Assembly (NCBI GenBank): GCA_964187785.1
Contig: OZ076409.1
Coordinates: 54,190,001-54,250,000, forward strand
Direction of reading: 5' to 3'
DNA: 60,000 nt
From: Amphiscolops sp. MND2022
Taxonomy: Eukaryota
How positions within the stretch are numbered: position 1 is the stretch's first letter; each line of letters starts with the position of its first letter. The notes beneath the pieces are model-generated. The model was not told the DNA's origin. It worked only from the letters and a program-made list of their open reading frames with translations, and did no database searches. Position numbers and translations under genes: made by a program. Below are positions 2,588 through 58,583 of this stretch, piece after piece.

Positions 2588-3317
2588 TGTAACGGCAAGC
2601 TCTGGTACAGCAACATCAGCCGACATGTTTAGAAAATTTTGTCAAAAATTCGTTCAAATTTGACGTGGCACTCAAACATGCTCAAGACGAAGTACCTGCC
2701 AAAAAAAGCACCCCAGAAAAGCAGAAATCGCCGCTCGCGACGAACAAGCACCGGAGACGACAAAAAAGACGTCCCCGACGCATACAGAACACGGTATTGT
2801 GTCAATCTCTAGGAGATATCCATTACTACAGTAAAGGAAACCAGTGTTCCAGATGTTCGCCTGAGTATCCCTGCGGTATCCTGTGTGGCAACTAGCGCTA
2901 GCGCTGGGAAGCTGAGGTCAACTTTCATCAAATGACTCTGAACTCTTGATTTCTTGTTGTATTTTTCGATGTGGTAAATTAATATGCTCGAGAGCTGTTG
3001 TTTAACATCTGTTTATCCCATTTGGCGATTTTATCAGATTCTCCAATATTACGGTTCAACCTTCATCGATTTTCAGCCCAATTTTTAAAGGCTAGTTGAG
3101 CAGTGGTCTTGAGTCTTGCAAGATGCCTGTTACTTTTAGCAGTTACAGACTAGGACCAGGCCAGAGAGCGTCCTACAAGACGGTTCCCCCACCTTGGGAC
3201 TGGCTCCTTCGGAGGGAAAATGAGCTAGGGCCGCGGAGATCCAGGTCCCAGATTATATTCGCTGTTCTAGTTCCTCCACTCTACGTTGCGGTTCAAGCGC
3301 CAGCGCTTATCGTTACA
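2588..3317 (+). repeat. 5' LTR (730 bp)
   Basis: TGTAACG...CGTTACA terminal inverted repeat; direct repeat of 20746-21477. Confidence 0.97.
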
Positions 3318-3332
3318 TAGAAACTCATTTTT

Positions 3333-3350
3333 TGGCGACCACAGAGGGAT
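3333..3350 (+). promoter_or_regulatory. Primer-binding site, tRNA-Arg-like
   Basis: TGGCGACCACAGAGGGAT resembles the complement of the eukaryotic tRNA-Arg(TCG) 3' end (TGGCGACCACGAAGGGA). It is conserved in the minus-strand copies near 250-267 and 1420-1437. Confidence 0.75.
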
Positions 3351-4489
3351 CGTCTTGGGAAGCTTTCCCTAGCGGTTTTTAAAAGATCTGGCCCCCTGGT
3401 ATTCAGCGCCAAGCCCGTTTTCGACTCTGGACAGGAGAGAAGAGCAGAGTTTTACCTCTTTTTAGTCGTATTACGTCTTACTGGAACTGGGAGAGGCGTT
3501 GAACCAGAGAAAATGCCGAAGAAAGCGTGTTTTCAGGTGCGAAAATGGTATTTTTGGGCATTTTAGAAGGAAATCGCTCTTTATGTGTGATGTGTTGTGT
3601 ACCCATCAGCGGGTACCTTTTGGCAGGTGTAGAGGACCGTAGCACGTGGCTACGGGTGTCTAACAGGTTTTTTGAGCTTTTTTCAGCCATTTTATGCCAT
3701 GCAAGAGGGTAACGGATGGATGGTTGACCATGCTCCAGCGAGGCGAAGGAGGGGACAAATCTTGTGTAGCCTACTTCCTATTCCCATTTCTCGTGGAGAC
3801 GTCCTAGAGGCATGGTTTTTGGTGGACAGCAAGTACAACGACAGACGGTGCTAATGGTCCCACTCGCGTGTTTCTATCTGGTCTAGATGTGGAGAAATAA
3901 CGTGGTGAAGATGCACCCCCTATGACCAGATGAGTCGCTCAGATGGAGTATGGTTGGCGAAAATTTTGAAAATACACCTCTTTCGATGGAGAATCGTTGG
4001 TGCAGTTGGTGCAGGTCAGTGACGTTCTACTATAAATGTAACGACACCCTACGAAGTGCTTTTCTGCGAAAAAGATAGCACTTGGAAAAAAAAACCTCAT
4101 TTTGTGTTTTTTTTGGTGTTTTTCTTGGTTTCGAGCACTAGTGCTCACAGAAGCCAAGAAAGTTTGGTAGGAAGTGTTGAAAAAGCAGCTGCAAGGCTCG
4201 AGGAAGCCGGCACAAGGCACGAAAGGCGAGGTTGAAGCCTTTGATTGTGATAAAAGTGCCAATTTGATGCCGAAAAATGTGAAAAAAGTGGAAATTTGGC
4301 CAAAAAGGCACCCAAAATGTAAACGTACACGAGTGTGGAAGTGTAAAATGACAGTGTACGGCACTATCCCAAGTGTAGTTGACCCTCAGGATACTAATTG
4401 CAACTTTTGTAGCGGACTCAGGCAGCCTGGGGCTGATACAGTGCGAAAAACTTGTGATTTTTGGCATTTCTGAGTAGAGAAAGTGCATT

Positions 4490-4830
4490 AACCAAAAACA
4501 CCCAGAGCAAAGCTTATTCGAAAAGAGCGGGCTCGAGCGCTCTCATTTTCGATTGTAGCAGCAAAAACGACGCGTTGAGGTGAAAACCGCATGCAAAAAT
4601 TCCTTTTCAGCGTTGAGAAAAGTTGAAAAACCTTGATTTTTGGCCAGTTTCAGGAGTGTCAAAGCGCATCATTAAAACCTCTGGGGCACTCAGTGTTTTC
4701 GAGACCGGGGAGCCCGCGCGCACCTATTTTCTGTTTTTAAAATACAAACAACGCATTGTGGTGAAAACCGCGTGCAAAAATTCGTTTTCAGTGCTGAGAA
4801 AAGTGGAAAAACGCACTGAATTTGGTCAAT
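4490..4830 (+). repeat. Diverged ~181-bp tandem duplication in the leader
   Basis: gtgaaaaccgc(a/g)tgcaaaaattc...gagaaaagt at 4580 and 4761. Confidence 0.75.
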
Positions 4831-6046
4831 TTTCCACAAAACCGGACTGTCTCTGAGCTAGGGTCGGGTCATCGATTCCTGAACCCTAGCCAAAAAGTGG
4901 TTGCATTTTCGTAACCATTACAAAACTTAACGTTAGTGCCGAAATTTTGACGAGCGTATCGCTCACCAAAGTCGAGAAAAGCCCTCTGACGTTTCGACTT
5001 CAGAAAAGCACATAAAAGCCAAAAAAATCCAAAACTACAGGACTGTCAGTGCCTTATACCTAACGGGCACAACCAATTGAGGGTTTATCCCAGTGCTACG
5101 GATAGTGGGGCAACACGTTGGTCCGATTTTGCCCGCCGTATCACTTCCTGAGGTGATCCTCTTGGTCAAATTGTGAAAAAAGTCGTCAAAAACAGTGTTT
5201 TTTCGTGTACAACGTGCATAGTGGGTCGAAACCTCAAATAAGCGCTCGCGCTTCAATTCGACCATTTTAGTGGCATTGTAGGTGCCTGCTGGCATAGACT
5301 ACCAAGTTTGGTGCCGATCTGTCTGATACTTGTCGAGAAAATAGAAAAAACGTGGAGCCCAAAAAGGTGTCCAAAAAGGCAGTTTTTTCTTAATTTTTCC
5401 AAGTAACCCGGGTACCTCAGCCGAAGGGTGGGGCTATATTGCAGCCCACCATTGTAACTTGTGCTAGCTCTTACGTTGCTGCAGAGAATTTGAGCTTGCT
5501 AGCTTTTTCCAGTGGACCGCAATCTTGAAAAAGACGTGAAAAACAGTGTATTTCGGTACATAGTGGTACCGCACGTCTGTACCTAGGTGAAACTGTGTAG
5601 AAGGGGCGCAGCTCAAAACTGTGTTCGTTTTCGTAAACCTACGTGTACCTAAGATCTGCTGGTCAATTTTGGGCTTGATACCGCGCTTCTAGCGCACACA
5701 CGAGCCTGTTGAGTGTTGTTGTGCGATTTTTGGAAAATCCAAAATTTCTTCGAAATTCTTCCTGTGAGTGACCGGAGACTCTTGGCCCTAAACCAGGTTG
5801 ATTTTCTAGCCCAGTGTGCTTGTGGGAAAACGCTGTGCAATTTTGAACAGCCTACGAGCTCTGGAACGTGTTTCGAAAAATCTAGAACGTTGAATACCAT
5901 CAAAATTCTTAAGTGCTCACCGGGACGACCAAGGGATCAGCTTCGAATTGAAGACCCTGGTGCGTTCGGCGACCCAATTTGAGTCTTCCGAGTAATCGTG
6001 AGCGGTATCTCGATCGCTATTGATAAACGCGTTGGCCACCGAACCG

Positions 6047-9000
6047 ATGGCGGTATCCCATACCGGTTCACAATCATGGGTCACGATAGAGGGTTCGCGT
6101 TTTTCAGACGACATGTCTGACGAAGTCACTATCGAACAACAGCGAAAAGAGGATTTGGCCGCTATGGTTCTTCCCTCAGAGAACTCCAGTGTTGCTGAAA
6201 ATTCACGCCAAACCGAGCAGTGGGTCGACGAAACTTGCCGCGATAGAGCCAATGAAGTGGAAGAGGGCTGGCCCAATTCGAATGCAACCGATGAACTGGC
6301 GGCTGAGGAAGGGTGCTCGCGCGCACCCCCGGCTGGCGAAAGACAACTTGGCTCACAAACCGACATGGAGCAGGACCTCACTTACGTGGGAGGCATGAGT
6401 TACGCGCGACGGCGGGGACTCGGGACCAATCGAGGACCTACCCGGGTCTGTGCCTACGGGAAGCACAAGAAGGTACGACCACCTATACTACAGGTAGGTG
6501 AGCCACGTCAAGAGGTATCCCGTGTCAGGAGTATGACAGGCTCATTGGCCTCATCGCAACGGTCTTCAGTATACAAGGCAGCACTATTGGATGCCCAAGC
6601 CGAAACCCAACGGGCCCTAACAGGTCTGGCCAGCACTCGTGCTGAATGCAATGAGCAACATCTTGCCATCGTGGAGAACATTAAAGTGATGCAGACGACG
6701 ATGCGTGAGGGCCTGCAGGTCAGCGATCAATTGCGTACCGCGCAGAATGTGCAAAATGCTCGAGTGGACACATTGGGTCACCGGATAGGAGAGATGAATG
6801 ACACGTTGATGGCTCGCGAGTTGCGCGTGGAAACGCAGATCAACGACTTAAGCAATCAGATGCACACGGTACTCAATGCCATTGATGTCATGAGGCGTGA
6901 GAGGTCACTCCCGTGGCAGCCCAGTGCAAGTGGAGGCGTGCGGAATGGAGGTCCAGTCCGTATCTCGGAGCCGACGTGCCCGAGCCAGGTAGTGAAGTCG
7001 GAACTGCCGAGCGCGCTAAAGCCTAGCACTTCCAGGCCGGCAGTGCCTGCGCCCCGGAAAGATGAAGGAGTAGCCGGAAATTTGGTGATAGCCACGCCTG
7101 AGGCAGAGCGCAAGCCTGCACGAGTGCAGATGAGGGGACATCACGACTCAGCAGAATCATCGATGCCTTCTGCAATCCAGAGCACCACTCGAGATCAAGG
7201 CGTGGACCCGATGTCGACCATCTATCTTGATTCCTCGGTTGAAGTTGACCTATCTAACACCAAGGCAACGCTAGGCTCTCAAACCGAGGGAGCAACGTTT
7301 GCAATTGCCCCTATTTCAATGTCAGGACCAGATTCCATATACTGGACCGCAGACTCGTCAGCCGATCATGGACTGCCCTCGGGCACTCCCTGTGCTAGCA
7401 GCACTCGCAAAAAGGACGAAATCGCCGACCTGTCGATACAAGCCACTCTTGGTAGTCATGACAGGACGCGCGAGGGGGAGGCCAAGGCCGATGAAGGAGA
7501 AGCCATATCCCCCGAGCAGCTGAGATTCACGGCCGCCATATCAAAGGCGATGTCAAAAGAGTTAGCGCCCTTACTCGCCGGCAGAGACTTGGCTCAGGCG
7601 AGGCCCAATGTATATCGCGGGTCCAAAGACGGATCCATTGATGGGTGGATCCTTATTATTCAGAGATACCTGAAAAGAACGCAAACCAAGGTCTCAGCCG
7701 AGGACCAGGCTTGGAGCATCATCGGTCACCTTGAAGGTGAAGCCCGCAACTACATCATTAACAAAGCGGAATCCGAACGTGACACCCCCGAGAAGGTGTT
7801 CGAATTGTTATCCAGCCGCTTTGGCGCTGGAGGAAAACGTATGCAAGTGCGACAAGCTTTCCAGAGCCGCATTCAACAAGAGAAAGAAGACTGGATGCAG
7901 TATTTAGACGCTCTAGAGGGTCTTCGGAGTCAAGGATTCCCACAAGAGGCAATCACCACCAAGCGCTATGAAATCCTCCAGCGCTTCATGGAAGGTGTAC
8001 GAGACCCAGCGCTGAGGCGGGAGCTGGCCATAGTGTATGCCTCGGAAGTCTTCCTGACCGAGCCGCCTACGGTGGAATCCCTCCGCTTTACCACCCGCCA
8101 ATTGCAGCGCAACCGTCCAAAACCTAACCAATTCCCTCAACCCTATGACCCCAGACTAGCAATGAGGTCTCGACCTCATCCCTTCGCGCCACTACCCCCC
8201 AACAAAATGGTGTTACCACAAGGAGTAATGCCTCCCCCACCTGCGAGTAATGCTCCCCCCAATCAAGCAGCAGTGCAGCCTGCGGTACGCCTGCCCGTTG
8301 GCGCGTGCTATAATTGCGGTCAAGCTGGGCAATTTGCCCGGGACTGTCCCACCCGCGATCAAGCTCGCAAACCAGTGGCAGCTCCTGAACCAGAAGGTGT
8401 GAAAGTCACTGCTGAAGACGTAACTGATGGCGTGTTGGAGAGCTATCCAGGCATTCATCAGTGTGCGCACTGTGGAGTCTATGACCATGTGGATGTCCCC
8501 TGTGGTGAGCATTCTGAAGCCCCGAGGCCTAATGATGAATTGGCCTATAATCGATGGCTCGAGGTGGAATCCGCTGGTGTGGCCGCCCACACGGTACCCC
8601 TGGAAGATGATCGCGTATTAATGCTACACCTAGCGGAGCCCCCAGCGTTTCACCCCCCACTGATAGTTACATGTGGGACAAAGCAGATTCAGACGTGCTT
8701 GGAGCCTACAACGTTCGATCCACAAGGGAGAACGTTGATCTCGATTCATCTTATGCTGGCAGCCGAGCAGGTGCGTAGACCAACGCTAACCTTGGCGAAA
8801 CTCTGGGTTGAGCTATCTGTCCTCTATAACCGGATGGAATTGCCCCGCCCAAAACAGTGGCACGTCCCTGGAGAGTCGGAGACCCTGACTACGTACTCGC
8901 CAGTACCAGTCTGTGCAACGATGGACGGCGTGGACGTGAAGTTCGAGGCCTGTGTGGTGGTAGATGTGTTCCCACCCGGCTTATGCTTGGGACCTCAAGA

Positions 9001-10666
9001 GCTGAAATGCTATAATATCAACCACCAAGAACCCACCGGGGAAGCGCGAATAGATGAGCGTGCATCGCTCGTTGTCTCCTTTGTGGTGCCTCATGCAGCA
9101 CCTATCCCACTGCGAGGCCTGGTGGACACTGGTTCCGGAGTATCCATACTAACCTTCTCCGCCTTCAACCGGGTAGTTGCACGGACCGGAGCGGTCCTGA
9201 AACCCTATCAAATTGATTCGTACGCTCCCAATGGGAAGACAATAAAGACTTTCGGGTTGGCTGAGCAGATACGCTTCCAGTTGGGAGGGTATGAACTCGA
9301 AACCAGTTTCGTCGTGGTAGATGACGCAATGGGCGTGGAAGACTTTCTGTTTGGTCGAAACTTCCTCCGTTCCTACCAAGTCTTGGTAGATCTAACCTCC
9401 ATGAAGATAGTGGTGCGAGCACCTGTGAAGCCCGTCTGGCATCATGCACACACCCAGGTAGGTGACGCTTCGTTAACTACCTCCATTACCCTGGACAGTG
9501 ACCTAGTCCTACAGCCTTTCGAGCGTACAGTGGCAAAGGCCAAACTTGTCACCAACGCGCTTGAACCATTAATCTTCCAGACCGTTGCGCTTAACGCCTC
9601 GTTGTCTGATCCCTCATTGCAAAATACCATCTTTTTAGAGGACAGCGTAGCCACTGTCAGTGAGACAGGAACACTGTATGTGAGCCTGGTAAACCTCACC
9701 AGCAACCAGCAGCGTGTACGATGTGGTGCCCACCTAGGCACGGTAGTGCCTGTGTCTCTAGTATACCAGGCTGTGCCCCAAAAGCTGGATGCTACTGTGG
9801 AAGCTGACCACAAAACTGAAGCCGACAACAGTCGAGCAAATTTTGTTTATAAAGTGTACAGTGAAATGAATCTATCCACTGCTTCTGAGTTAACTTCTTC
9901 ATCTGAATTTGAGTTTTTGTCTTCTACGGATCCAAGTGAAGCGGGGCTTTCGGAGCGCGAGATTCGCAAGCGCACCGATCCCGACCTATTGGCCCCGATC
10001 CCTGGGCCCGATTCTCAATTGCAAGAAGTCAAGAACCTCTGGGGCGCTAGCGCCTGCGAGTCCTTAGACAACATTCTTAACGAGTTTGATGACCTATTCA
10101 TGAAACGCAAGGCGGATATTGGTCGCTGTACCATTGCTAAACACACCATAGAGGTAGAGCCTGAGGCGGTACCGCACCGTGAAGGTGCTCGCAGAATGTC
10201 CCCCGAAAAGGCTGAACGAGCCAACCAGGAGGTTCGGAGCTTATTGACCTTAGGGATGATACAACCTTCACTGTCCCCATGGTCAAGTGGTATCGTAAAG
10301 GTAAAAAAGAAAAGCGGGGAGTTACGCTTTTGCTGTGACTTCCGACCGCTGAATGAAGTAACCATTAAGGATGCCTACCCCCTGCCCCGTATCGATGAAA
10401 GCCTGGCGCGACTGGGCAATGCAAAGATCTACACCAGCATAGATCTTGCCTGGGCTTTCTGGCAAATTCTCTTGCGAAAGGCGGACCGCCACAAAACAGC
10501 CTTTGCCTGTGAGTTGGGACTCTTTGAATGGCGAAGAATGCCATTTGGCTTGTGCAATGCATCAGCCACCTTCCAGCGAGCAATAGCGCGAGCGCTGCAA
10601 AAAAATAGTCAATCGCAAAGGCAGCATGGTCATGGCATACATCGACGACATAGTTATAGCAACTGA
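6047..10666 (+). CDS. gag-pol: Gag-Pol part 1: coiled-coil N-terminus, capsid, Zn knuckle, pseudo-protease, aspartic protease, dUTPase-like domain, RT N-half
   Basis: Capsid-like DGWILIIQRYL...LEGEAR; CYNCGQAGQFARDC; LVDTGSGVS; RFCCDFRPLN, YPLPRID, DLAWAFWQ, RMPFGLCNASATFQR. First ATG at 6047. The frame is lost at the A7 run at 10599-10605. Confidence 0.93.
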   Translation: MAVSHTGSQSWVTIEGSRFSDDMSDEVTIEQQRKEDLAAMVLPSENSSVAENSRQTEQWVDETCRDRANEVEEGWPNSNATDELAAEEGCSRAPPAGERQLGSQTDMEQDLTYVGGMSYARRRGLGTNRGPTRVCAYGKHKKVRPPILQVGEPRQEVSRVRSMTGSLASSQRSSVYKAALLDAQAETQRALTGLASTRAECNEQHLAIVENIKVMQTTMREGLQVSDQLRTAQNVQNARVDTLGHRIGEMNDTLMARELRVETQINDLSNQMHTVLNAIDVMRRERSLPWQPSASGGVRNGGPVRISEPTCPSQVVKSELPSALKPSTSRPAVPAPRKDEGVAGNLVIATPEAERKPARVQMRGHHDSAESSMPSAIQSTTRDQGVDPMSTIYLDSSVEVDLSNTKATLGSQTEGATFAIAPISMSGPDSIYWTADSSADHGLPSGTPCASSTRKKDEIADLSIQATLGSHDRTREGEAKADEGEAISPEQLRFTAAISKAMSKELAPLLAGRDLAQARPNVYRGSKDGSIDGWILIIQRYLKRTQTKVSAEDQAWSIIGHLEGEARNYIINKAESERDTPEKVFELLSSRFGAGGKRMQVRQAFQSRIQQEKEDWMQYLDALEGLRSQGFPQEAITTKRYEILQRFMEGVRDPALRRELAIVYASEVFLTEPPTVESLRFTTRQLQRNRPKPNQFPQPYDPRLAMRSRPHPFAPLPPNKMVLPQGVMPPPPASNAPPNQAAVQPAVRLPVGACYNCGQAGQFARDCPTRDQARKPVAAPEPEGVKVTAEDVTDGVLESYPGIHQCAHCGVYDHVDVPCGEHSEAPRPNDELAYNRWLEVESAGVAAHTVPLEDDRVLMLHLAEPPAFHPPLIVTCGTKQIQTCLEPTTFDPQGRTLISIHLMLAAEQVRRPTLTLAKLWVELSVLYNRMELPRPKQWHVPGESETLTTYSPVPVCATMDGVDVKFEACVVVDVFPPGLCLGPQELKCYNINHQEPTGEARIDERASLVVSFVVPHAAPIPLRGLVDTGSGVSILTFSAFNRVVARTGAVLKPYQIDSYAPNGKTIKTFGLAEQIRFQLGGYELETSFVVVDDAMGVEDFLFGRNFLRSYQVLVDLTSMKIVVRAPVKPVWHHAHTQVGDASLTTSITLDSDLVLQPFERTVAKAKLVTNALEPLIFQTVALNASLSDPSLQNTIFLEDSVATVSETGTLYVSLVNLTSNQQRVRCGAHLGTVVPVSLVYQAVPQKLDATVEADHKTEADNSRANFVYKVYSEMNLSTASELTSSSEFEFLSSTDPSEAGLSEREIRKRTDPDLLAPIPGPDSQLQEVKNLWGASACESLDNILNEFDDLFMKRKADIGRCTIAKHTIEVEPEAVPHREGARRMSPEKAERANQEVRSLLTLGMIQPSLSPWSSGIVKVKKKSGELRFCCDFRPLNEVTIKDAYPLPRIDESLARLGNAKIYTSIDLAWAFWQILLRKADRHKTAFACELGLFEWRRMPFGLCNASATFQRAIARALQKNSQSQRQHGHGIHRRHSYSN

Positions 10667-12722
10667 GACTGTAGAAGATCACATGGCGCGTTTGCGCGAG
10701 GTTTTTGAATGCCTCCGCGAAGCTGGCTTCAGGATGCGCGTAGCCAAATGCGACTTCATGAAACCAGAAATCAAATATCTGGGACGCGTGGTCTCAGCAG
10801 AAGGTGTCAAACCGGACCCGAAAGCTGTTGCCAAACTGCGCGATTGGGACATCCCCCGCAACAAAACTGAAATGCAAGGTTTCCTGGGATTCGCTAATTA
10901 TTATCGTGAATTCATCCCGTGGCATGCCAAGCTGGTGGCGCCCCTCCACGCCGTTACGGGACTGAATGCCACATTTGCATGGGGTCCTGACCAACAAAAA
11001 GCCTTCAACGAAATCAAGACAGCATTGATCGAGGCGACTGCGCTCGCGCAGCCTGATTCCGAAGGAGAGTTTGTGCTGGACACCGATGCCAGCGCCGTTG
11101 CCATTTCCGGTATCCTACACCAGTGGCAAGGAGCTCCAGGAGAGCGACGTCTACGACCGATCATATACGGCAGCAAGAAACTGACCACAACCCAAGCCAA
11201 ATATGGGGCACCCAAGCTGGAGATGTTTGCTGCCTACTACTTCATTATCAAGTACCACAGCTACCTTTGTCCCCGAAAGTTCACCCTGAGAGTCTACAAC
11301 CAAGCCCTATCCTGGTTGAAAACCTACTCCACGGACCAAGCATTGATTGGACGTTGGATTATGACACTGGACAGGCATCACTTTCGCGTGGAACACAGAC
11401 CACGAACGCAACACCGCAATGCTGATGGCTTGAGCAAACGAACCAACGATTATCGATGCCGAGAACAGCAGCTTGCGCAGCTGCCAGCTACTGGAGAGCG
11501 TTGGAACTTCCTCTCGGCCGAGGAATTCGACAACCTCCCCATAGCCCCATGGTTCGACCTGCAAGGTCGAATCATTCCAAATCATCCTGACCTACCACCG
11601 CATCTGCAGAACTTGGAGCCTAAGGCTCCTGACCAAGCACTCCGTGTGCTTCGCCGTGTGCAACGAGCGAACAAGCGAGAACGACAGGCGAAGGCGCTAG
11701 CCGCGCCTTTACCGCCTCAGCCTCCACCCGTGCTACAGAAGCACGAGGACTTCTATCCAGACTATCCTGAAGACTGGATAGACGTCACCACTGAGGCGAG
11801 CGAGGATTACCTGCTGCCAACACATGCAGTAAATGTCCCCTCGCGCACCATCTATTCTGTGACGGGAACGAGTAACGCCATGCTACAGAACTCTCCTGGT
11901 GGCGTGCGCGAGTCGATCATGGCCCTCAAGGACATCGACACCGAGCTCCATGAACACACACATACCGTGCACGGGATCAAGGACTTGGTTTTAGCCCAAA
12001 ACCGCGATGTCCATGTGCTAGCGCTGAAAAAGCTCGTGCAGTGTGAATCCCTAGATAACGATGTGTTTCCCGAGAACGTGCGTGAGTTCGCACGTAATTA
12101 CTTCCGCCAGAAAAAGGATCTCTTGTTCATAAACAAGAATGATGTCCTTTGCGTGCAATACTCCCCCACCCAACGCCCACTGCACGAACGTCCGTGCATG
12201 ATCATAATGCCTCAACTGTACCAGCACGAGATTCTGTTCCGTGCGCACGACGCAATGGGACACCAAGGTATCTCAAAAGTGGTAGCTCGAATTCAAGAGC
12301 GCCACACTTGGCCCGGCATACAGCGCAGTGTCGGTCGATACGTCGGCCAATGCCTCACCTGCCAACAAGTACGTGACAAGCCTGGTGACGTACGATTCCA
12401 ATTGAAAAACATTCAGAGTGGCTACTTCAACGAGTTGGTCCAATATGACCACTTAAAAATCTGCCCCTCTGATAACAACAACACTGGCATTTTGGTCATC
12501 ATCGACCATTTCTCTAAATTTGCAGAGGCAGTCCCTTGTAGTCATCATGACTATGACGCAGTGACCACCTCACGATTGCTGCTGCAGAAATGGTTTGCCC
12601 GCCACGGCACCCCCGCTCGCATGCAATCAGACAATGCTCCCAACCTTACTGCTGAAGTCTCTAATGAGTTCCTAAAGGCAGCTCACGTCACTAAGGTGAC
12701 CTCCACTGCCGGACATCCCTGA
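10626..12722 (+). CDS. pol: Gag-Pol part 2: RT C-half, RNase H, long tether, integrase N-terminal part (ends at a premature TGA)
   Basis: YIDD, YLGRVVS, FLGFANYYR; LDTDAS...NADGLS; HHCC (HDAMGHQG...CLTC); YDH and SDN of the DDE triad. Confidence 0.95.
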   Translation: MVMAYIDDIVIATETVEDHMARLREVFECLREAGFRMRVAKCDFMKPEIKYLGRVVSAEGVKPDPKAVAKLRDWDIPRNKTEMQGFLGFANYYREFIPWHAKLVAPLHAVTGLNATFAWGPDQQKAFNEIKTALIEATALAQPDSEGEFVLDTDASAVAISGILHQWQGAPGERRLRPIIYGSKKLTTTQAKYGAPKLEMFAAYYFIIKYHSYLCPRKFTLRVYNQALSWLKTYSTDQALIGRWIMTLDRHHFRVEHRPRTQHRNADGLSKRTNDYRCREQQLAQLPATGERWNFLSAEEFDNLPIAPWFDLQGRIIPNHPDLPPHLQNLEPKAPDQALRVLRRVQRANKRERQAKALAAPLPPQPPPVLQKHEDFYPDYPEDWIDVTTEASEDYLLPTHAVNVPSRTIYSVTGTSNAMLQNSPGGVRESIMALKDIDTELHEHTHTVHGIKDLVLAQNRDVHVLALKKLVQCESLDNDVFPENVREFARNYFRQKKDLLFINKNDVLCVQYSPTQRPLHERPCMIIMPQLYQHEILFRAHDAMGHQGISKVVARIQERHTWPGIQRSVGRYVGQCLTCQQVRDKPGDVRFQLKNIQSGYFNELVQYDHLKICPSDNNNTGILVIIDHFSKFAEAVPCSHHDYDAVTTSRLLLQKWFARHGTPARMQSDNAPNLTAEVSNEFLKAAHVTKVTSTAGHP

Positions 12723-15404
12723 ACTCAAGGCTTGGTGGAACGGCAAAACCGCACCCTCTTAACCTTGCTGCGAGTCTTTTGCTCACGTCGCATGCGCGAC
12801 TGGGACCAATGCTTAGATGAAGTAATCGGTGCCTATAATTCCACCAGGCACGCCACTACAGGCTTCTCGCCCTATATGTTAACAAGGGGTGTTGAGAAAG
12901 CAATCCCCCTCACCTTTTTATACCCTGAATTTGCAGCCAAGTCCTTCGACACGCATGAAGCATAGGTGGATCATGTGTTGGCTCGCCAACAAGAAATTCA
13001 CGACTTGGTCCGGCGCAATACGCACCAAGCCCAATTACGCCAAAAATTGAAGTATGATCGTGCTATTCGAGCACGAGCTTACCAGCCAGGAGAGCTTGTC
13101 TGGGTTTTTTGCCGCTACGTGCCGCAAAAAGGCTCTCCCAAACTGATGCGCGCCTGGCGTGGCCCGCACAAAATAGTACAAGTCTTTCAAGAAGGACGTG
13201 TCTACGCATTGGACACAGGCCAAAAGGTTCATTTTGAGCGCCTGAAACCTCATCATAGTGGGCCCCTTGAGCTCGCCACCGCGCAAGCGGACAGCGGCGA
13301 AATAGTGGTACTCATGGACCCTGACCCTGAACGTTCTGTTGAAGCAGTTGACGACGATAAGTCCCAGCCTTCATATAAAACTGAACAACTACTTTCAGAA
13401 GCATCTGACGTGTCCTTGCCTTCGCGCAAGCAACATTGGATGGATACCCGTCTGCGCACAAAGTTACGTGCTGGAGGTTCCCGCATGCACTACCAGCAAT
13501 TCGACTACTCAACTTCGGGCACTGACGACGAGTTGTCCGAAATCATGCTACCGGTACCTCCTGATCCCGTTGATGCTGATCGCAGGGAGCCCGAACCCCA
13601 ACTCCCTTCAGACCAATCAATATCACCTACCCATCATCTGCCTCAACTATTCTCCGACCATGAGCGCGCGCGCTCTCCGTCACCACGAATATCCTCTCCC
13701 GAAAAACAGCCCTCCTTACTGAGAACATCGGCCCCACTACTGACAAATCCATCACTGACGAGTTTCCTCAACAACTATCCCATTTGGCCGGCCGCTCCTT
13801 CCCTTCCTCTGAAATCCGCCACTGAGGATGACGACGCTCAGTCCAATGTCCCTACTCTTCCCACAACATTGCCCGGAGCGGGGACCGCTCCTTTTTTCAA
13901 AAGGGGGAGGGGGAGACCACCCAAAACGCGAAAAAGGCTGGTCAGAGCGAAGGCAAGAACGAGGAAGAAAGAAACAACAACAATAATGCCGTCGGAAACA
14001 GTAATACCGACCGAGACTTCTGAGGTTCCCCGATACCAGCTGAGAAGCAGGCGGCAGCCACGCTATAAGTGCGGGACCTGTGGGCTGCGAGACTGTGTTT
14101 GCTTGCTAGCCGTCAATGAGAACCGGAGGGTTCCCACTGGAGCCCGGGGAGTCCCTCCAGAGCGGGGAGAAAATCTAGTACATCGCCTTACGGTGAGAGC
14201 TGAAAAGACTTATTCCTCCCTGGAACGACACGGAGACCATCCCGTGGATACTATTATGGAAAAGTTATCACTACCTGGAGTAGCGAAGGCCCCATGTCCT
14301 CGATTTAAGGAGTGGACTAGCGACGGAAAAGGGTTAGAGTTCACCCTCGCAACGGTGATGCCCCCAGTACCCAGCAATATTGCGTTTGGATCCTTCAACT
14401 TCGAACGGGAGACTGTGCAAATGGTCCGATGCATCACCGGTGATCTTCTCTGTGACAAATACGGAATTCACGTGGATCTGGGCGGAGTATACAGCCCAGC
14501 GCCGCACTGGTGTTTGCTGGTCACTGCTCCACGAGTGGAGGCAATAGTGGAACCATTGCACCTGCTGTCCTTCTTGGAAGGTCTGAGGACCCTCACTACC
14601 GCGGACTTGATACTTTGCTTCCACATCATAGACTGGTATCGTGGCAAAGTGAAATTCGCGAGGTGGTTGGAGCTGATCATCACTTGTTTCCCCAATTATC
14701 CTCGCATTAGATTGCTGGACGAGTGGACTCATACTTTCGAGATTCCGCTTCCTCCGAAAGCCGTTTTGAGCACCCTAGACACATGGGTTAGGGCGGGCAG
14801 TGATAATCGAGCGATGCCACGCTCGGTATGGCAAGACCTGGCTGCAATCCAGGGGCGTACGCCCCGCGTATGCTTGCCTGCCGACAATGGGCCGGGGAGA
14901 GAGATTATCTACCCGGGAATCCTGCATCCAGCCCCAACAGAGCACCTCTCATATGATGTGACTGATTTTCTTCAAGTAGAAGGTGATATGGTGTTAGCGT
15001 GTCCCGCTGACCTAGAGACCAACTCAGCTGCCCTACGGTACGTGCTACGAGAATGCGGCAAGGAGAACGTATTCTCCTTACGTCCTAAGGTGGGGGAGAT
15101 TCTCACCATTCCTCCCGATATCAACCCAAACCCCAATCAGAGTATTCACTTGCTAATAATCAGAGTAAACCAGCGTGCGCCGCTGCTCGCAGACGACTAC
15201 CTACGTTGTATGACGCACTTGATACAGCGTTTGATGGAGAAGGGATCCACGAGGGTCCACCTACCTATACTGGATCCAGAGCGACCCGCCCTCTCATTGG
15301 TAAACTTATACCATACCCTAACGAATTTGCTGGAGGGCACTGGCATTCACGTAGTGCTGCATAACCGCGTGTATGTGTCCATTCTGAACATAGGGCTGGA
15401 GTAG
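12723..15404 (+). pseudogene. pol: Gag-Pol part 3: integrase C-terminus plus long extension (AT-hook, Cys motif, two macrodomain-like domains); in-frame stop at 12963-12965
   Basis: VERQNRTL, YNSTRH...GFSPY and the GPY/F-like WRGPHKI; KRGRGRPPK; CGTCGLRDCVC. Same frame as part 2 across TGA 12720 and TAG 12963. Confidence 0.9.
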
Positions 15405-15662
15405 CCCGCCCAAAACGCTTTTTGTTGCCCCCCCCCCTATTTAATTTACCCACCCCGATAATCGTTATACCTGGGAGGAAGTGTTAAACCATCCCATGAA
15501 ATGATTACATTGTAACGTAGCGCTAAATAACTTCTATCTTTATGTTGTAATTAGTTAGTTGAACTACAATTTAAACTTGTTGCGGTTCCCCCATGGAACC
15601 ATCTTTGTACTATTGTAGCTGAATGATGAGCCTTAAGCTCCCCCCACAATGCACCTAGTAAG

Positions 15663-15683
15663 CCTAACGGTGATCCTTTTTAG
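15663..15683 (+). promoter_or_regulatory. Putative branch point and 3' splice acceptor for ORF3
   Basis: CCTAAC...CCTTTTTAG ending 12 nt before the ORF3 ATG. Confidence 0.6.
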
Positions 15684-15695
15684 AACTATGATATA

Positions 15696-18600
15696 ATGGC
15701 TTATTACCCCAACAACACGGTACCTATTTCCACGACGGGACCTCACGCCAATAGGCCTCAAGAATTGCCTGCGCGAGCGCAGAGGACTAATCAAGTCCAA
15801 TACGTAGAAGAGCGATTGAGGAACGGCCTCTCACCGTTAGCGGTAGCGGGCGTGGCCGCCCTACTTACCCAACTAGACACAATGCAGACGCTGCCGGGCG
15901 TATCCGTGTCTCTGGTGACGGAAGTAGCCGGTTACCGTCGCACCCTAACCTGCCAAAACAATGCGTGGGATGGCCACGATCTGACGCACCAGTTCCTGGA
16001 TGAACGTTCTACCACAATGCTCGGGCCCAGCCAAGGCACGAGATTCGAGCAAGAAGCCTCACTGTGTATGGTGCCTGCCAGCGTAGCAACAATGCCTCCT
16101 CCTCAGATGGTCGCACTGCCCCCACCAGCACCAAATCCAGTACCAATGACGCCAACTTATTCCGGTTCGCCTGCCTTTGGAACCTCATATCGAGCACCAC
16201 ACATGGTACTGCAAACCACTACTAATGCACCAGTCTCTGATCGGGATCCCTCGGGGTCCCGGTTACCACCCATACCCAACCCAGAGCTGACGGGAAGGAG
16301 TACCAGCGAACAGGCCGTAATTGTGGCCTTGCAAGCAGTGGCGAACTATCCCAACTCCACCGATTTCGTCCGTGCCGTGGAGCAGAGAATCCCTGGTTTA
16401 GCCACGTATCTGCAAGCTGCTGCTCAGCCCGCGGGCTGTGACCCTCCTGCTCCCCTAGTCGAAACGGCATCTATGGATATGGAAATTGTCGCTGGACCGA
16501 GTAACAGCGCAAGCGCTGCCTCTGGCACACGAGAAGAAGCGGGGAGAAAGCGGCTAACTGAAGAAACTGTCTCAGTTACCCCAGCTGGCTCGGTAACCGA
16601 GAGCCCAACTAGTCGTCCCCCTCCCGACAAGCGCGCTGATGTACCTCGGCCCCAGCTGAAGAGTGTGGTCATCCCTAGGCCCCCGTACCGGGTAGGTCAT
16701 CTAGGCCGAAGCGCACCTCAAATGTCTTTAGCAGACGCGATCGAACAGTATGGAGACCCGGATGCAGGCTCGGAAGTGAGCTCTGTGCCCTCGGGCATCA
16801 ATCCAATAGATATGTCCCTGGAGATACCTGAGACGGTGGAGGAAGCCCATCCTCCAGCTTTCCTCCCTCCATCTGACGACGTATCCGGCTCAGTAGTCAC
16901 CAATGATAGCAAACGCATTTGGATAGCGGCTGAGCATCTCTACCCCAGTCAATGCGCTATCAAGAAAAGGACCCCTCCAACTGAAACGGAGCAAAAGGAG
17001 ATCAACCGGACAACGATACCGGCGCAAGTCACGCGTTCGCTCCGCCCCCGTGACGCAGACATGTCGGAGCAGGCTTGGGAACAGCGTGCTCGAGAGCAGC
17101 TGCCTATGACAACCAACGATTACATGGCGCCCCTGCAACACAATATCACTGAGCAATTCCCCGCACGGTATGTGTTGCGAGAAGGTGAGACATGGGAGGC
17201 GAACGCCCGTTACGCTCGCAACCTGAGATCTTTGAAACCCCTATTGAAAGCAGCTCTGCAGCGCGCGCGCTACTGCATGGCAGTTGATTCTACTTGCCGA
17301 AGTGACCTCCCTATTGACAATTTAATGCCTGACGTGCTGGTGCTAACTATGCCCCTGTCTCGCTTCGCTGAGGTCGCTGAGATGGTTGGAGCCATATACG
17401 ATCCAAACTTAAGAGGATCACAAAAGGAACCACCCCCACAGCGAGTGATCTTTGCCAATCTTCTTGATCACATGGCTTGCGAAGGATTGCTGCACGACCT
17501 GGACGCCATAATGTCCAATGTCCGACGACTTGGAGACATTGACGCCCTGGTAAATGAGGTGGTCGGTGCAATGGAACGTGCCGCAGGGATCCTTCGGGGT
17601 CGTCTGGGAGCGCTCGCGCTCTTTGTATCCCCACCAGGATTCATGTATTGGCCACGAAGTCTGCAGCAGTTCGTCTACATTCTGCTGGAGGTGTGCAAGG
17701 CGCGCAGAGTCGAATTCGCCATCTGTGCACCGAACTTGCGCGTGGACCGAGAGGACCTGCGCCCAGATACCTTATCGTATCCAGCCTTCTTTGCCGCCGT
17801 ATCTAGAGCGCTTGTGGCTATAGAACGCTCGGGAAACGCCCAGCTAACCATTGACGATGCTATCCTCTATGATTATGGAATGCGGATGGGCAGATTGGCC
17901 TTTGACCTTGACGGCAACCGCATTGCCCGAGAATCTAATGTAACCGAACGAGAGGCTGTTCGCCGGTATAATTGGCTAGTGCGAAGAGATAAAGAAATCC
18001 CAGTGCGCGCAGAATTAGCCGACCTGACAAAACAAATTGGTGCATGGCCTGCAGCGCGCACCGTCGAGAGAACAATTCCTCAGATCCACTTCGCCTCGGG
18101 AATCGAGCCCGTGAAGCTGCCTGTAGGGCTGCGGTGTATCGTAGCAATGGAAGCAACAAACCTGAAAGCAGAAGTCGACGCCGCAGCCACCACTTATGCT
18201 TATTGGTACCAGACTAGGTTTGCCACCAGAACTCTGGCAGAAGTAGCTCGAGAGCTCAATTGTCCATTGGAAGCCTTCTGTACCAGTCTTGGTCTAGGAT
18301 GGAACCTAGAGGTACTAACTTCTGAGTTCTCGCTGACCTCTACGCAAACGGACAAGCTGCTAGAAACAATTGGAGAGGCAACCGTCGGAGAAATACTAGC
18401 GCTCGCGCTAGCGATGGGCCCAACCAAGTTTGTAGCCGGACCACTGGCCTTTTTAGTCGACATAGTAATTGCCTGCGACCTCACCGTGTTCTACAGCTAC
18501 TTGGTCCTGGCACAAGGACAACTACGCAGCCTGACCCGTTGGGGACACTTGATGACTTCCAAAGACCAGCAAGACTATTCCGCCCAACTGGAGCGCATGC

Positions 18601-20003
18601 GTGCGTCAATCCAGCACTGGCTAAACTCCACCCTGGTGTTCGCCTCTGGCCTATTCGTGGGCGCAGACCAATCCCAACCACTACATAACTCCGACCAGCA
18701 GATCTCACGGGAAACGGCAGGATTCCCCATGCCGCAGCAGATTGCAGATCTCACCCTGGCTGAAGTAGAAGATTTTGTGGCAGCAATGGCTCCTGTCTTG
18801 GCCCCTATCTTTGGCGCAGTGGGCGTGTGCCGATACCCAACAAAACCATTGGCAACAGCCGTCCAAGTGCACATGGCCTCCTTCAGTACCTACCTGCGGG
18901 GCCATCCCTCACTGGCGTATCCAAGGGTAATACATGCAGTGCTGAGTGGTGAGGTGCCGCATGGGTACACGACCATAAAATCCGAAAGAGAGTTGGAGGA
19001 GAACCTGATGGGTTTGCTGCGCGCGCGCACCAGGAATGCATGTCCTCTACCCCGAGAGCATGGACCTGTGAACTGGTATTCCGCACCTCTCAGTTTGGAA
19101 GGGGTCCCCTTTAGGTTCCCCTGGAGTCAAGAGTTCATAAGGAAGGCGATTCGCGCCAGCACTAGTGCTGGTCCACCTGTAGACCCTTTATACTGCTTCA
19201 AATGCATCGCCTTCCCAAACCGCTATTGGAAGGAGCCGTTAGGTTGGCCCAGGGCAAAACCCGTTGGACGCGCCCCAGAGGTGTTCAACCGCCAAATCCA
19301 ACACTTGGAGTCAGCCCAGATCCCAGGATTGATTGAAGGCGCTGCTCAGATCAGGCAGAGGAATCTTCAATCCCGCGTTATCCCGTTCCCCAGGAAGTCG
19401 GCATGGAAACCCACGGGAAAGATGACCATGTCTGGAGATATGTCCATCGTCCAGCATGATGAAATAAACTCCGTGTTGGGCTCAACAGAACGTGCGAGAT
19501 GGGAAGAGTACTGTCTGGAGTTGGAAATTGCAAGCTTCCCTAAATGGAAGAGAGCTTGCGAGCTCTGGAGCCAATCTGGATGGATCTCACGCCGTGTAGC
19601 ACTAGCGGTAGAAGGTAGAGCAGAGATAGCGAGACAACAGGCGTTCGCGCCTACCATGCTCGCACCAACGATGGCGATGTCTTTGGATCGGCCCATCTCT
19701 CAACCGATCACCATTAACCTTCCAACCCATAACTTGGAGCCAAACCCAGTTGGCCCGTCTTCGTCGCGAACGAGCCCTCAGTCCTCGCAGCAGCAGTCCG
19801 GAGAGCACACTGCCGAATTGACTCCCAATGCAGCACTAGTGCAGCCTATTGCCGAGTTGTCGCTCCCCGAAAGTCCGTCGGACTCTGAAACAGTTACCAC
19901 AGAAGTTTCTCCCCGACGTCGAGCGTCAGTGTCGACTGATAACCCAGAACAGAACCTAGATGATGCCACTAAAGAGCGGACCCGACGCAGTTCAGCTCAA
20001 TAA
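15696..20003 (+). CDS. ORF3 of the retrotransposon, 1435 aa: Pro/Ser-rich ends, central SGNH-hydrolase-like domain, uncharacterised helical region
   Basis: Uninterrupted 4.3-kb ORF between pol and the 3' LTR. SGNH-like blocks at about 17268-17822. No evident signal peptide. Confidence 0.88.
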   Translation: MAYYPNNTVPISTTGPHANRPQELPARAQRTNQVQYVEERLRNGLSPLAVAGVAALLTQLDTMQTLPGVSVSLVTEVAGYRRTLTCQNNAWDGHDLTHQFLDERSTTMLGPSQGTRFEQEASLCMVPASVATMPPPQMVALPPPAPNPVPMTPTYSGSPAFGTSYRAPHMVLQTTTNAPVSDRDPSGSRLPPIPNPELTGRSTSEQAVIVALQAVANYPNSTDFVRAVEQRIPGLATYLQAAAQPAGCDPPAPLVETASMDMEIVAGPSNSASAASGTREEAGRKRLTEETVSVTPAGSVTESPTSRPPPDKRADVPRPQLKSVVIPRPPYRVGHLGRSAPQMSLADAIEQYGDPDAGSEVSSVPSGINPIDMSLEIPETVEEAHPPAFLPPSDDVSGSVVTNDSKRIWIAAEHLYPSQCAIKKRTPPTETEQKEINRTTIPAQVTRSLRPRDADMSEQAWEQRAREQLPMTTNDYMAPLQHNITEQFPARYVLREGETWEANARYARNLRSLKPLLKAALQRARYCMAVDSTCRSDLPIDNLMPDVLVLTMPLSRFAEVAEMVGAIYDPNLRGSQKEPPPQRVIFANLLDHMACEGLLHDLDAIMSNVRRLGDIDALVNEVVGAMERAAGILRGRLGALALFVSPPGFMYWPRSLQQFVYILLEVCKARRVEFAICAPNLRVDREDLRPDTLSYPAFFAAVSRALVAIERSGNAQLTIDDAILYDYGMRMGRLAFDLDGNRIARESNVTEREAVRRYNWLVRRDKEIPVRAELADLTKQIGAWPAARTVERTIPQIHFASGIEPVKLPVGLRCIVAMEATNLKAEVDAAATTYAYWYQTRFATRTLAEVARELNCPLEAFCTSLGLGWNLEVLTSEFSLTSTQTDKLLETIGEATVGEILALALAMGPTKFVAGPLAFLVDIVIACDLTVFYSYLVLAQGQLRSLTRWGHLMTSKDQQDYSAQLERMRASIQHWLNSTLVFASGLFVGADQSQPLHNSDQQISRETAGFPMPQQIADLTLAEVEDFVAAMAPVLAPIFGAVGVCRYPTKPLATAVQVHMASFSTYLRGHPSLAYPRVIHAVLSGEVPHGYTTIKSERELEENLMGLLRARTRNACPLPREHGPVNWYSAPLSLEGVPFRFPWSQEFIRKAIRASTSAGPPVDPLYCFKCIAFPNRYWKEPLGWPRAKPVGRAPEVFNRQIQHLESAQIPGLIEGAAQIRQRNLQSRVIPFPRKSAWKPTGKMTMSGDMSIVQHDEINSVLGSTERARWEEYCLELEIASFPKWKRACELWSQSGWISRRVALAVEGRAEIARQQAFAPTMLAPTMAMSLDRPISQPITINLPTHNLEPNPVGPSSSRTSPQSSQQQSGEHTAELTPNAALVQPIAELSLPESPSDSETVTTEVSPRRRASVSTDNPEQNLDDATKERTRRSSAQ

Positions 20004-20730
20004 ACCCAGCCGCTAATGGGAGCGTTCGCGCTCCCTATACCCTCATAAACTGCCAACAAACAGTGCCTCAAAACTTCTCATCCAGAACGGTGCTATAGTA
20101 CAAAGTGCAATTTTTGTTCTTAGTTATGGTTATATAATTAGTGTACCATTAGTGTTGCACTGGGTGTACGGCCAATAGAGTACGCCTGCCCCAATGGCTT
20201 GAGTGACCAAGCAGAAAGAAAAGAAAACTATTGTTCAAAAAAACTATCATTTTTGTTGCGCACCGTTCGCGGTGTTTTTGAGTTGTCTTATCCCTCTTGA
20301 TTGCGTTTCTTTCTAGTCTAGTGTTCTTCATCAATCTGGTTGTTCACCGTAAGAGCCCCCAAGCTCTAAAAAAAGTTTTTGATCGCCTGAAATGAACTGA
20401 AGACTTGTAGTCTCAAATGGTAAGGAAAAGAAATTTTAGCTGACTTTGGTCGCAAATAGGTTTTTACACAAGTTGACTGCCCAAACGAATTTTAACCGGC
20501 TGAAAACTGTAGCTCTCGAGCTGGTGCTAAAACCTCGTTCATGTTTTGTACGAATAGCTAGGCAGTAAGTTCTTTTTTTTCTCGTAAAAAAACTGCAAAG
20601 TCGACCAAAATTGTTGCCGAAAAACAAGGACTCGTCCTTGTTCCCCGATGTGTGGATGATGGTTCCCAGCAGTCACTGTGATGCAGTTCCCAGACGATCC
20701 AGACGCCGCTTGCCAGGGACGACAAGCCAG

Positions 20731-20745
20731 GAGCCTGGGGAGTGA
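20731..20745 (+). promoter_or_regulatory. Imperfect polypurine tract
   Basis: gagcctggggagtga directly before the TG of the 3' LTR. Confidence 0.6.
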
Positions 20746-21477
20746 TGTAACGGCAAGCTCTGGATGTACAGCAACATCAACCGACATGTTTAGAAAATTT
20801 TGTCAAAAATTCGTTCAAATTTGACGTGGCACTCAAACATGCTCAAGACGAAGTACCTGCCTAAAAAGCACCCCAGAAAAGCAGAAATCGCCGCTCGCGA
20901 CGAACAAGCACCGGAGACGACAAAAAAGACGTCCCCGACGCATACAGAACACGGTATTGTGTCAATCTCTAGGAGATATCCATTACTACAGTAAAGGAAA
21001 CCAGTGTTCCAGATGTTCGCCTGAGTATCCCTGCGGTATCTTGTGTGGCAACTAGCGCTAGCGCTGGGAAGCTGAGGTCAACTTTCATCAAATGACTCTG
21101 AACTCTTGATTTCTTGTTGTATTTTTCGATGTGGTAAATTAATACGCTCGAGAGCTGTTGTTTAACATCTGTTTATCCCATTTGGCGATTTTATCAGATT
21201 CTCCAATATTACGGTTCAACCTTCATCGATTTTCAGCCCAATTTTTAAAGGCTAGTTGAGCAGTGGTCTTGAGTCTTGCAAGATGCCTGTTACTTTTAGC
21301 AGTTACAGACTAGGACCAGGCCAGAGAGCGTCCTACAAGACGGTTCCCCCACCTTGGGACTGGCTCCTTCGGAGGGAAAATGAGCTAGGGCCGCGGAGAT
21401 CCAGGTCCCAGATTATATTCGCTGTTCTAGTTCCTCCACTCTACGCTGCGGTTCAAGCGCCAGCGCTTATCGTTACA
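20746..21477 (+). repeat. 3' LTR (732 bp)
   Basis: Differs from the 5' LTR by about 5 substitutions and 2 small indels (counted by eye). Confidence 0.97.
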
Positions 21478-21559
21478 GTGTTACCCATAGAATTCAACAC
21501 ACATAAATTTAGCTTCATTCCAGATGTATTTGTGGAGATTTCTAGACTTTTTGATTGAC

Positions 21560-24100
21560 CCCAAGGACCCCATAATGACCCAAAAATGACCCAAAAATGA
21601 CACCAAAAATGCAGAAATTGGCAAAAAAATTCCAATTTTTTAACGTTTTGCGGCAGTTCTTGTCAATTTTTTGATAGATATTGTGATTAGAATGTTGAAA
21701 TTGTTCAACAAGGTACGAACGCGTTGTCCAATAGTCTTCTATGAAAAAATAATTGCTGTTTTCCAAATAAAAAACATCTCAAATTGACATTGAAAACGAC
21801 AAAGAAGCCAAAAATGTCCCAATTTTACCGTTTTTAGGCGACTTTTGTCGAATTTTTGATGGACTTCGTGGATTAGAATGTTGGAAATGCTCAACATGGC
21901 ACACATTCGTTGTCCAGTAGGCTCTTCCGAAGAGCTAATAGCTGTTCTCCAAATGAAAAAGATCTCAAATTGACACCGAAAATGACAAAAAACCCAAAAT
22001 TTTCCAAATTTCAAAAGTTTTTTCAATTTCTGTCAAAATTTCGACAGACTTCTTGAATTGGAATGCTTAAAAGAGTCAACAAGGAAACAATTTACTATCC
22101 AGTAGGATTATTTGAAGAGTTTGTTGCAGTTATCTGAATGAAAAGGTCTCAAATTGGCACCAAAAATGACAAAAAGCACAATGTTTTCAAATTTTTAAAG
22201 TTTTTATTCAATTTCTGTCAAAATTTCGACGGTCTTCTTAGATTGGAATATTGAAATGTTTAACAGGGTGAAAAAAAGAAACGGTCGGTTGTCCAGTAGT
22301 CTTTTATGAAAAGATAACTGCAGTTTTTCAAATGAAAATCGTCGCAAATGTACACCGAAAATCACAAAGAAGTCAAACTTTTCCAATTTTCAAAATTTTT
22401 ATGCATTTTTGGGTAAAGTTTGGACAGACTTCGTAGATTGGAATGTTTGAAAGAGTGAACAAGGGAACGGGTTGGTTGTCCAATAGTCTTTTATGAGAAG
22501 ATGATTGCAGTTTTTCAAATGAAAAATCTCTCAAATTGACACCAGAAATGAAAACCAGCCCAAATATTTACAATTTTCAATAATTTTCATGCATATTTCC
22601 CCACATTTTTGACGGACTTTGTGGATTGGAATAGTGAGAAGTGCCAAAAAGGAAGAAATGTGATGTCCAATTTGCTTAGAGAAGAGATAAATGAAGTTTT
22701 TTAAATTGAAAAGATTTGGGGTTGACATCGAAAAACACAAAAATTCGAAAGTTTACCGATTTTCACTATTTTTTTTCGATTTTGTCAAACTATCGACAGA
22801 CGTCGTGGACTAGAACGTTGAAACCCCTAAACAATGGAACAAATTGTTGCTTCGGTGAGCTTTCGTCAAGTGATTGTCGTAATTTATTTTAAAAATTTCA
22901 AGTTTCGTCGTTTTCGATGCTGTTTCTGAACAATTATCAAAAGATTTCGTTTCAAGACAAAAGAACGAGCTATGCAAAATTTTTTTGAAAAGAACGTTGC
23001 AGCGTTTTGCTTCACAAACACTTCAGAATGACCCCAAATGGGTGGAAAATTTTCACCTTCGTTTTTGTTCATCTTATGTACTTTTTGAATCGTTTTTGAG
23101 TCAGATTGTTGGCAATCGTTCAACAGAAATTGAACTGAATATCCAGTAGTTTCCCAAAGAAATATTTGCCGACTTTGGTTGGAAAATGGCTCAAAATTGA
23201 CCGCAAATCTCAGAAAGGTCCAAATGTTTGCCAATTTCTGACGTTTTCAGTGAATTTGTTTGAGATTGGAAATTTTTGGTGAGATAAAAACTCCAAAAAC
23301 CTCCAGATGAAAACACTAGGTCCACAGGATATTTTTCGAATGAAATTGGCATATTTTCTTCAGAATAACCCAAACAATGGAAGAACTCAGAGTTTTCAAG
23401 TTTGTACATTTTTAGGCTATTTTTTTGAACAATTATTGAGCTACTTCCTTGCACAGAATGGGTTCGAAAACTCAGCAATAAATAATCCTGGTATCCAGTA
23501 GGCAATTGTGAAGATTTAACTGCACTTTATTGCTGGAATTGGTCAAAATCCATGACACAACAGAAAATCACGTTTTTTGACAAACTAATCCCAATTTTTG
23601 TTCATACCACGAAAGTGTTTGAAGAATAGAATTTCCATTGACCTGAACGTTGAAACAATAAAGTTATCAAATTGGAATTTGCGGAAAAAATGGGATGAAG
23701 TTCATCGAGTTTACTACAAACGTGTCAAAACTTCCGAGTTTCCCTTAATTTCGAGAACATAATCCCAATTTTCGACCCAATTTTCAGGATTGAAGCGCGT
23801 AGCTACCAGTAGTGTTTCGAAAATTATCAGACAAATTTATTTGCAAAACTTTCAAAAACTTTTGTTGAAACGTAAATTTCGACGTTATTTGTGCAATGTT
23901 TAAAATTCAATTAGCTCCAAGCAAAATCACTAGATATGGAGTAATCCTTCCAAAGGAATTTGTTTCGAGCTATTTCGTGGGTTAGAATGCTGTGAACAGT
24001 CAGCAACAACTAAACTCTGCGTCCAGTAGGCTTATTTTGAAGAGACATCTGTATATTCATGTTAGGAAAGTTCCTCAAACTGACCCCAATTTGTAGAAAA
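21560..24100. repeat. Diverged AT-rich tandem repeat, ~185-190-bp unit
   Basis: Recurring tcca(g/a)tag, gatt(a/g)gaatg and ctcaaattgacacc at about 21726, 21911, 22098, 22291, 22478 and 22666, decaying toward 24 kb. Confidence 0.8.
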
Positions 24101-58543: not shown

Positions 58544-58583
58544 AGTCTTTGTTCTCAATTGAGTCTTTGTTCTCTTCATTGAG

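Follow-up and report, generated by a model that had tools for sequence, protein, structure and literature searches.

Two predicted macro-fold domains follow the integrase of a Ty3/Gypsy element

The window analysed here is a 60,000-nt stretch of the Amphiscolops sp. MND2022 genome (GenBank assembly GCA_964187785.1, contig OZ076409.1, positions 54,190,001 to 54,250,000 of the forward strand). Bases 2588–21477 of the window form a single long terminal repeat (LTR) element of the Ty3/Gypsy type: a PNMA-like capsid, a CCHC knuckle, an aspartic protease, reverse transcriptase (RT), RNase H and integrase, identified with Pfam, follow one another in Ty3/Gypsy order inside LTRs that begin with TG and end with CA (Table 1). 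The LTRs are ~730 bp long and 98.6% identical to each other. Beyond the integrase, the polyprotein continues into an 812-amino acid (aa) tail that matched no Pfam family, chromodomain included, at E ≤ 1, and whose folded parts are two macro domains. An earlier note, made from the sequence alone, had proposed that two tandem, probably non-catalytic TARG1/Poa1p-class macrodomains are fused here to the integrase.

The window copy of gag-pol is disrupted, with a frame change near 10600 and stops at 12720–12722 and 12963–12965. We searched the 1.07-Gb assembly, which has 13 large contigs, with the C-terminal 378 aa of the window polyprotein. The family is very abundant: there were 4,498 first-look candidates, copies were found on each of the 13 large contigs, and all 109 of the candidates that were scored were 95–100% identical to the query. 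Frames of at least 3,100 aa were present in four of these 109 copies, and one such frame spans capsid through integrase to the identical final residues. Two further queries, 52–55% identical to the window sequence, revealed additional subfamilies with full-length frames in 23 of 108 listed copies (at least 3,100 aa) and in 7 of 108 (at least 3,000 aa, free of stops). In one copy read from each of four subfamilies, the polyprotein is 3,052–3,310 aa long and ends in the macrodomain pair; across these subfamilies RT is 91–99% identical and the macrodomains are 45–84% identical. Proteins carrying both domains at 29–41% identity also exist, as protein sequences alone, in other samples. Two of these were searched against this genome and gave no match at E ≤ 1e-42, the best reaching 45% identity. 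We conclude that the pair lies after the integrase within intact frames, so the proposed fusion to the integrase polyprotein holds.

Among known structures, domain 2 is closest in its macro alpha/beta fold to TARG1, DarG, BT1257 and Poa1p, and domain 1 likewise falls in the ALC1/TARG1 class. Both domains are thus predicted TARG1-type macro folds, homologous to TARG1 and to one another, in agreement with the class that the earlier note had assigned to both segments and with their proposed tandem order.

Both domains have lost key residues of the TARG1 pocket

We transferred TARG1 residue numbering to the two domains by alignment (chain index plus 6), using 147 rows for domain 2 and 175 rows for domain 1, most of which are probably copies from this genome. 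In domain 2, Ala occupies the position of Gly43 (130 of 136 ungapped rows), Arg that of Lys84 (142 of 147), Asp that of Gly121 (130 of 133), Glu that of Gly123 (122 of 131 ungapped rows) and Pro that of Asp125 (113 of 128). The Asp20 position, which we take to be an adenine-side residue, is Asp in 125 of 133 ungapped rows. Domain 1 lacks the first loop and its helix; the Lys84 position is Ala in 157 of 171 rows, Gly121 is Asp in 165 of 172, Gly123 is Tyr and Asp125 is Gly, and no equivalent of Asp20 is evident. Neither domain therefore has the Lys84/Asp125 pair of the TARG1 hydrolase or the glycine-rich phosphate and ribose loops.

Lys84 and Asp125 are described as the catalytic dyad of TARG1 (PMC9411070), and TARG1 K84A is reported to be inactive (PMC8501950). 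TARG1 G43E, I44E and G123E are reported to be deficient in ADP-ribose binding, with G123E retaining RNA binding through basic patches (PMC5928194). Because the dyad and the glycine loops are lost, and because TARG1 mutants of the G43E/G123E type do not bind, both domains are predicted to be catalytically dead and pocket-blocked; domain 2 would be a natural counterpart of the laboratory binding-dead mutation G123E. The non-catalytic state and missing loops that the earlier note had described are thus borne out. By contrast, its suggestion that the pair reads ADP-ribose is not supported for the usual pocket, and neither is a decoy that soaks up poly(ADP-ribose) (PAR): domain 2 has Asp, Glu and Ala at Gly121, Gly123 and Gly43, and domain 1 has lost its first loop and helix. 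A decoy would need protein contact instead.

In both domains I-G-C-G-L-D has been replaced by a common I-D-x-x-R motif, a hint that the duplication came after pocket loss. The dead domains are also acidic, with isoelectric points (pI) of 5.0–6.5 in all eight rows from this genome, as against 7.9–9.9 in six of seven intact macrodomains of transposable elements (TEs) and in a host-like one. As judged from sequence, this acidity points to a protein as partner rather than to RNA or PAR.

The pair is under purifying selection

Between subfamilies, the proportion of synonymous differences (pS) is 0.68–0.88, and the nonsynonymous proportion (pN) is 0.10–0.23 for domain 1 and 0.09–0.39 for domain 2. 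Most synonymous rates (dS) are saturated; in the closest and only unsaturated subfamily pair, omega for domain 2 is 0.055. Among 20 young copies, pN/pS is 0.28 and 0.22 for the two domains. Hence, both domains are under purifying selection, although they evolve much faster than RT and integrase, for which pN is 0.006–0.07. Three short motifs in the linker upstream of the pair persist (an RGRP motif that we take to be AT-hook-like, a YxLR basic motif and a four-cysteine motif), although the linker is only 44–53% identical between distant subfamilies. We take the YxLR motif to resemble the nucleosome-binding motif of foamy virus Gag. It lies at 14031–14054 in the window and is found again in the integrase tails of distant Gypsy lineages (L092, L093, L055 and L064).

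TARG1 domains with intact motifs occur in a sister lineage and in other Gypsy families

A metagenome scan with two distant members yielded 23 loci, one of which encodes an integrase 47% identical to that of the window family. Five of the 23 extend far enough upstream, and these show an intact-motif macrodomain ahead of the dead one. The order in this sister lineage (L059, L064, L068, L070 and L076, on metagenome contigs) is integrase, intact TARG1, linker, a 150-aa region of no assigned family, dead macrodomain and then further open reading frames (ORFs). The intact domain matches TARG1 at E 1.6e-24, the dead domain retains Gly123, and no match to domain 1 was found in the lineage. Its downstream ORFs include an SGNH/GDSL-like match that falls short of the cut-off (PF13472, E 7e-6).

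Searching this genome with the intact domain of the sister lineage gave 900 first-look candidates, of which 150 were scored. Six loci that were read fully are other LTR elements bearing a TARG1 macrodomain, at four positions: after the integrase (L090, L094), between protease and RT (L091), between RNase H and integrase (L092, L093), or after gag-protease in a short element (L095). RT from the five RT-bearing loci is only 24–35% identical to that of the window clade. Gly43, Lys84, Gly123 and Asp125 are present in all seven intact TE rows, and TE macrodomains with intact motifs are predicted to be active as erasers. In a tree, the dead domains of both lineages form a group separate from the intact domains, a result subject to long-branch warnings. 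A further locus, L126, contains at 5057–6001 (minus strand) the end of a TARG1-like ORF that has every motif, and no ORFs of an LTR element lie close by; it may be the host gene.

Insertions of the window clade have 3-bp target duplications

Target-site duplications of 4–6 bp are the norm for Ty3/Gypsy elements, a usual but non-defining trait. From 30 LTR loci of the window clade we obtained 10 insertions with both flanks, one locus having been dropped, and read the duplications by eye. All 10 have a 3-bp duplication and none has a 4-bp duplication. Four more insertions from four subfamilies agree, giving 14 of 14 (drawn from loci L096-L125, L021-L023, L036-L044 and the window), so the clade departs from the norm. 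By contrast, six insertions of intact-macro families in the same genome have duplications of 4, 4, 4, 5, 5 and 5 bp (the end of L090 was read by eye). The D-35-E spacing of the integrase core is normal in sister copies. If it holds, the 3-bp duplication is an outlier for integrase geometry. The earlier note had also proposed insertion-site analysis as a check on its idea that the domains guide integration; the 35 flanks showed no common target and no tRNA gene, and their GC content is ordinary.

Other features of the element and the window

The 15-nt spacer between the 5' LTR and the TGG motif is long and is common to all four subfamilies, and the leader between the 5' LTR and gag (3318–6001) has ~2.7 kb without a long ORF. 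The second ORF had no Pfam match and no PDB sequence match. Its residues ~508–731 are 47–49% identical across subfamilies, and its middle is 25–27% identical to a sister-lineage ORF that follows the SGNH/GDSL-like ORF. One full-length subfamily C copy that was read (15.8 kb) shows no second ORF. Inverted partial copies (90–94%) of the LTR 3' end and adjoining sequence lie 1–2.4 kb upstream of the element, at 180–478 and 1350–1583. To its right is a 186-bp satellite-like array (21678–22823). Elsewhere in the window are a 6-kb region with strong GC skew (50001–56000) and a perfect 343-bp inverted repeat (58577–59469).

Table 1. Features of the Ty3/Gypsy element, in window coordinates.
Feature	Position	Strand	Remarks
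5' LTR (TG...CA)	2588–3317	+	target duplication GTG just before, 2585–2587
Putative tRNA-type primer-binding-site-like TGG motif	3333–3345	+	starts 15 nt past the 5' LTR
gag-pol, including C-terminal tail	6002–15404	+	Pfam domains, ORF reading
Integrase: H2C2 zinc finger, DDE core, C-terminal domain	12210–13253 (start approximate)	+	Pfam PF17921, PF00665
AT-hook-like RGRP motif	13902–13925	+	in variable linker; retained in 4 of 4 subfamilies
YxLR basic motif, then four-cysteine motif (C-x2-C-x4-C-x-C)	14031–14102	+	retained in 4 of 4 subfamilies
Predicted macro-fold domain 1, TARG1/DarG class	14364–14732	+	first phosphate loop deleted; Lys84 position Ala
Predicted macro-fold domain 2, TARG1 class	14943–15377	+	Asp20 position retained; Gly43 to Ala, Lys84 to Arg, Gly121 to Asp, Gly123 to Glu, Asp125 to Pro
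Second ORF, 1,439 aa	15684–20003	+	ORF reading
3' LTR	20746–21477	+	target duplication GTG just after, 21478–21480

Discussion

Because of its position, its conservation and the loss of its pocket, we tentatively favour, at somewhat less than even confidence, a reading in which the dead pair has no enzymatic role and serves as a protein-binding module in the integrase tail, through which the integration complex would be held to a host chromatin protein. A Gypsy ancestor would have captured a TARG1 eraser; one captured copy would then have lost its pocket, with I-G-C-G-L-D giving way to I-D-x-x-R, and this dead copy would have been duplicated within the window clade. Together with the AT-hook-like, YxLR and four-cysteine motifs, the pair may form a chromatin-engaging tail, comparable to the chromodomain of chromoviruses, that would direct insertion broadly and not to specific sites. 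A chromodomain-like tethering role, which the earlier note had raised, may thus be plausible. Several observations weigh against it. The flanks give no proof of tethering, since they share no target; the aligned rows come mostly from copies in one genome and hence are not independent; domain 2 (45–56% identical between distant subfamilies) is no better retained than the aligned linker, as might be expected of a surface in conflict with the host; domain 1 begins ~370 aa beyond the integrase C-terminal domain, and the protease could cut the pair loose; and the Asp20 position, with Arg at Lys84, could mean a residual nucleotide site in domain 2.

The dead domains could instead be decoys that bind a host ADP-ribosyltransferase or reader and block it through protein contact; together with the intact TARG1 erasers carried by other Gypsy families, they would counter a defence based on ADP-ribose. 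We consider this rather unlikely, although intact-motif TARG1 domains at four positions in divergent Gypsy lineages suggest that ADP-ribose removal is useful to these elements, and although RT and integrase change far more slowly than domain 2. There is also a precedent, in that catalytically inactive DarG, TARG1 and SCO6735 were assayed as contact inhibitors of the transferase DarT, with SCO6735 reported as the strongest (PMC9411070). However, omega above 1 was not seen in whole-domain counts, and the sister lineage has an intact eraser beside its dead copy, which probably has a different job. Surface binding of nucleic acid (genomic RNA, cDNA or G-quadruplexes), of the kind described for TARG1 G123E and for the paired SUD macrodomains of SARS coronavirus, is improbable: both domains have a net acidic character, unlike TARG1 and SUD, whose binding of RNA has been attributed to basic patches (PMC5928194, PMC2674928).

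Less probable again is a structural role, in which the pair would belong to the intasome or particle, or be cleaved off as a protein of its own, and would influence the geometry of integration. Such a role might link to the 3-bp duplications, which set the clade apart from all six controls; the D-35-E spacing of the core is normal. However, this is one clade with one origin, in which pair and duplication length may simply be co-inherited; the comparison covers the window clade and the intact-macro families; and target-site stagger is normally fixed by the integrase core and its C-terminal domain. We think it quite unlikely that a remodelled pocket lets domain 2 go on reading ADP-ribose or some other adenine nucleotide. 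The retained Asp20 position, the Arg at Lys84 and the Gly123 of the sister lineage would fit such a site, but the clade has Asp, Glu and Ala at Gly121, Gly123 and Gly43, domain 1 has no loop, and G123E and G43E are reported to abolish binding by TARG1 (PMC5928194). In order of preference, we therefore favour a chromatin-protein tether, then a contact decoy, SUD-like nucleic-acid binding, a structural or cleaved part and residual nucleotide reading. The idea that the domains are functionless, decaying leftovers is the least probable by far. It would account for active-site loss and for change faster than in the enzymes, but it is already largely refuted by purifying selection between and within subfamilies, and the pair is retained in distant relatives that have no close match in this genome.

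A broader proposal, about which we are doubtful, is that ADP-ribosylation is an unrecognised defence of the host lineage against LTR retrotransposons, that Gypsy elements repeatedly captured TARG1 erasers to remove the marks, and that in one clade, whose integrase cuts with an unusual 3-bp stagger, dead duplicates became an accessory module of the integrase, a retrotransposon's equivalent of Mac1 plus SUD in coronaviruses. RNA viruses and phages are known to use macrodomains in counter-defence. The presence in one genome of TARG1-class domains, intact or dead but conserved, in several distant Gypsy lineages makes restriction of LTR retrotransposons by ADP-ribosylation testable with small soluble domains, and the dead pair may represent a new class of accessory domain for integrases.

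Comparison with known systems

Macro domains in LTR retroelements are already known: epsilon-like fish endogenous retroviruses are reported to carry them as additional reading frames (Basta et al., 2009, as cited in PMC4977317). There too a cellular macro domain was captured by an LTR retroelement, but the elements are retroviruses rather than Ty3/Gypsy. What appears to be new here is a tandem dead TARG1-type pair on a Gypsy integrase polyprotein; the literature searched, which lay outside subscription papers, supplements and repeat databases, contained no description of TARG1-type macrodomains, or of dead ones in tandem, attached to a Gypsy integrase. The pair shares fold and element order with human TARG1/OARD1/C6orf130 (PDB 4J5R, 2LGR) and the ALC1-like class (DarG, 5M3I; BT1257, 2AFC; Poa1p, 6LFQ; SCO6735), and domain 2 also shares sequence similarity. 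Unlike that class, it has lost Lys84/Asp125 and the glycine-rich loops, is tandem and retrotransposon-encoded, and is acidic rather than basic.

Chromovirus integrases have a C-terminal chromodomain, and the window element likewise carries, at the distal end of its Ty3/Gypsy integrase, a fold captured from a chromatin pathway. Unlike chromoviruses, it has a macro fold and no chromodomain, and no insertion preference was seen in the flanks. The SUD of SARS coronavirus nsp3 (SUD-N/SUD-M, or Mac2/Mac3) is described as similarly tandem, lacking ADP-ribose-binding residues and lying in a replicase-type polyprotein (PMC2674928). The fold score to SUD is lower than that to the TARG1 class, so the likeness is one of analogy. 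It extends to the sister lineage, where an intact macrodomain stands ahead of a dead one as Mac1 stands ahead of SUD.
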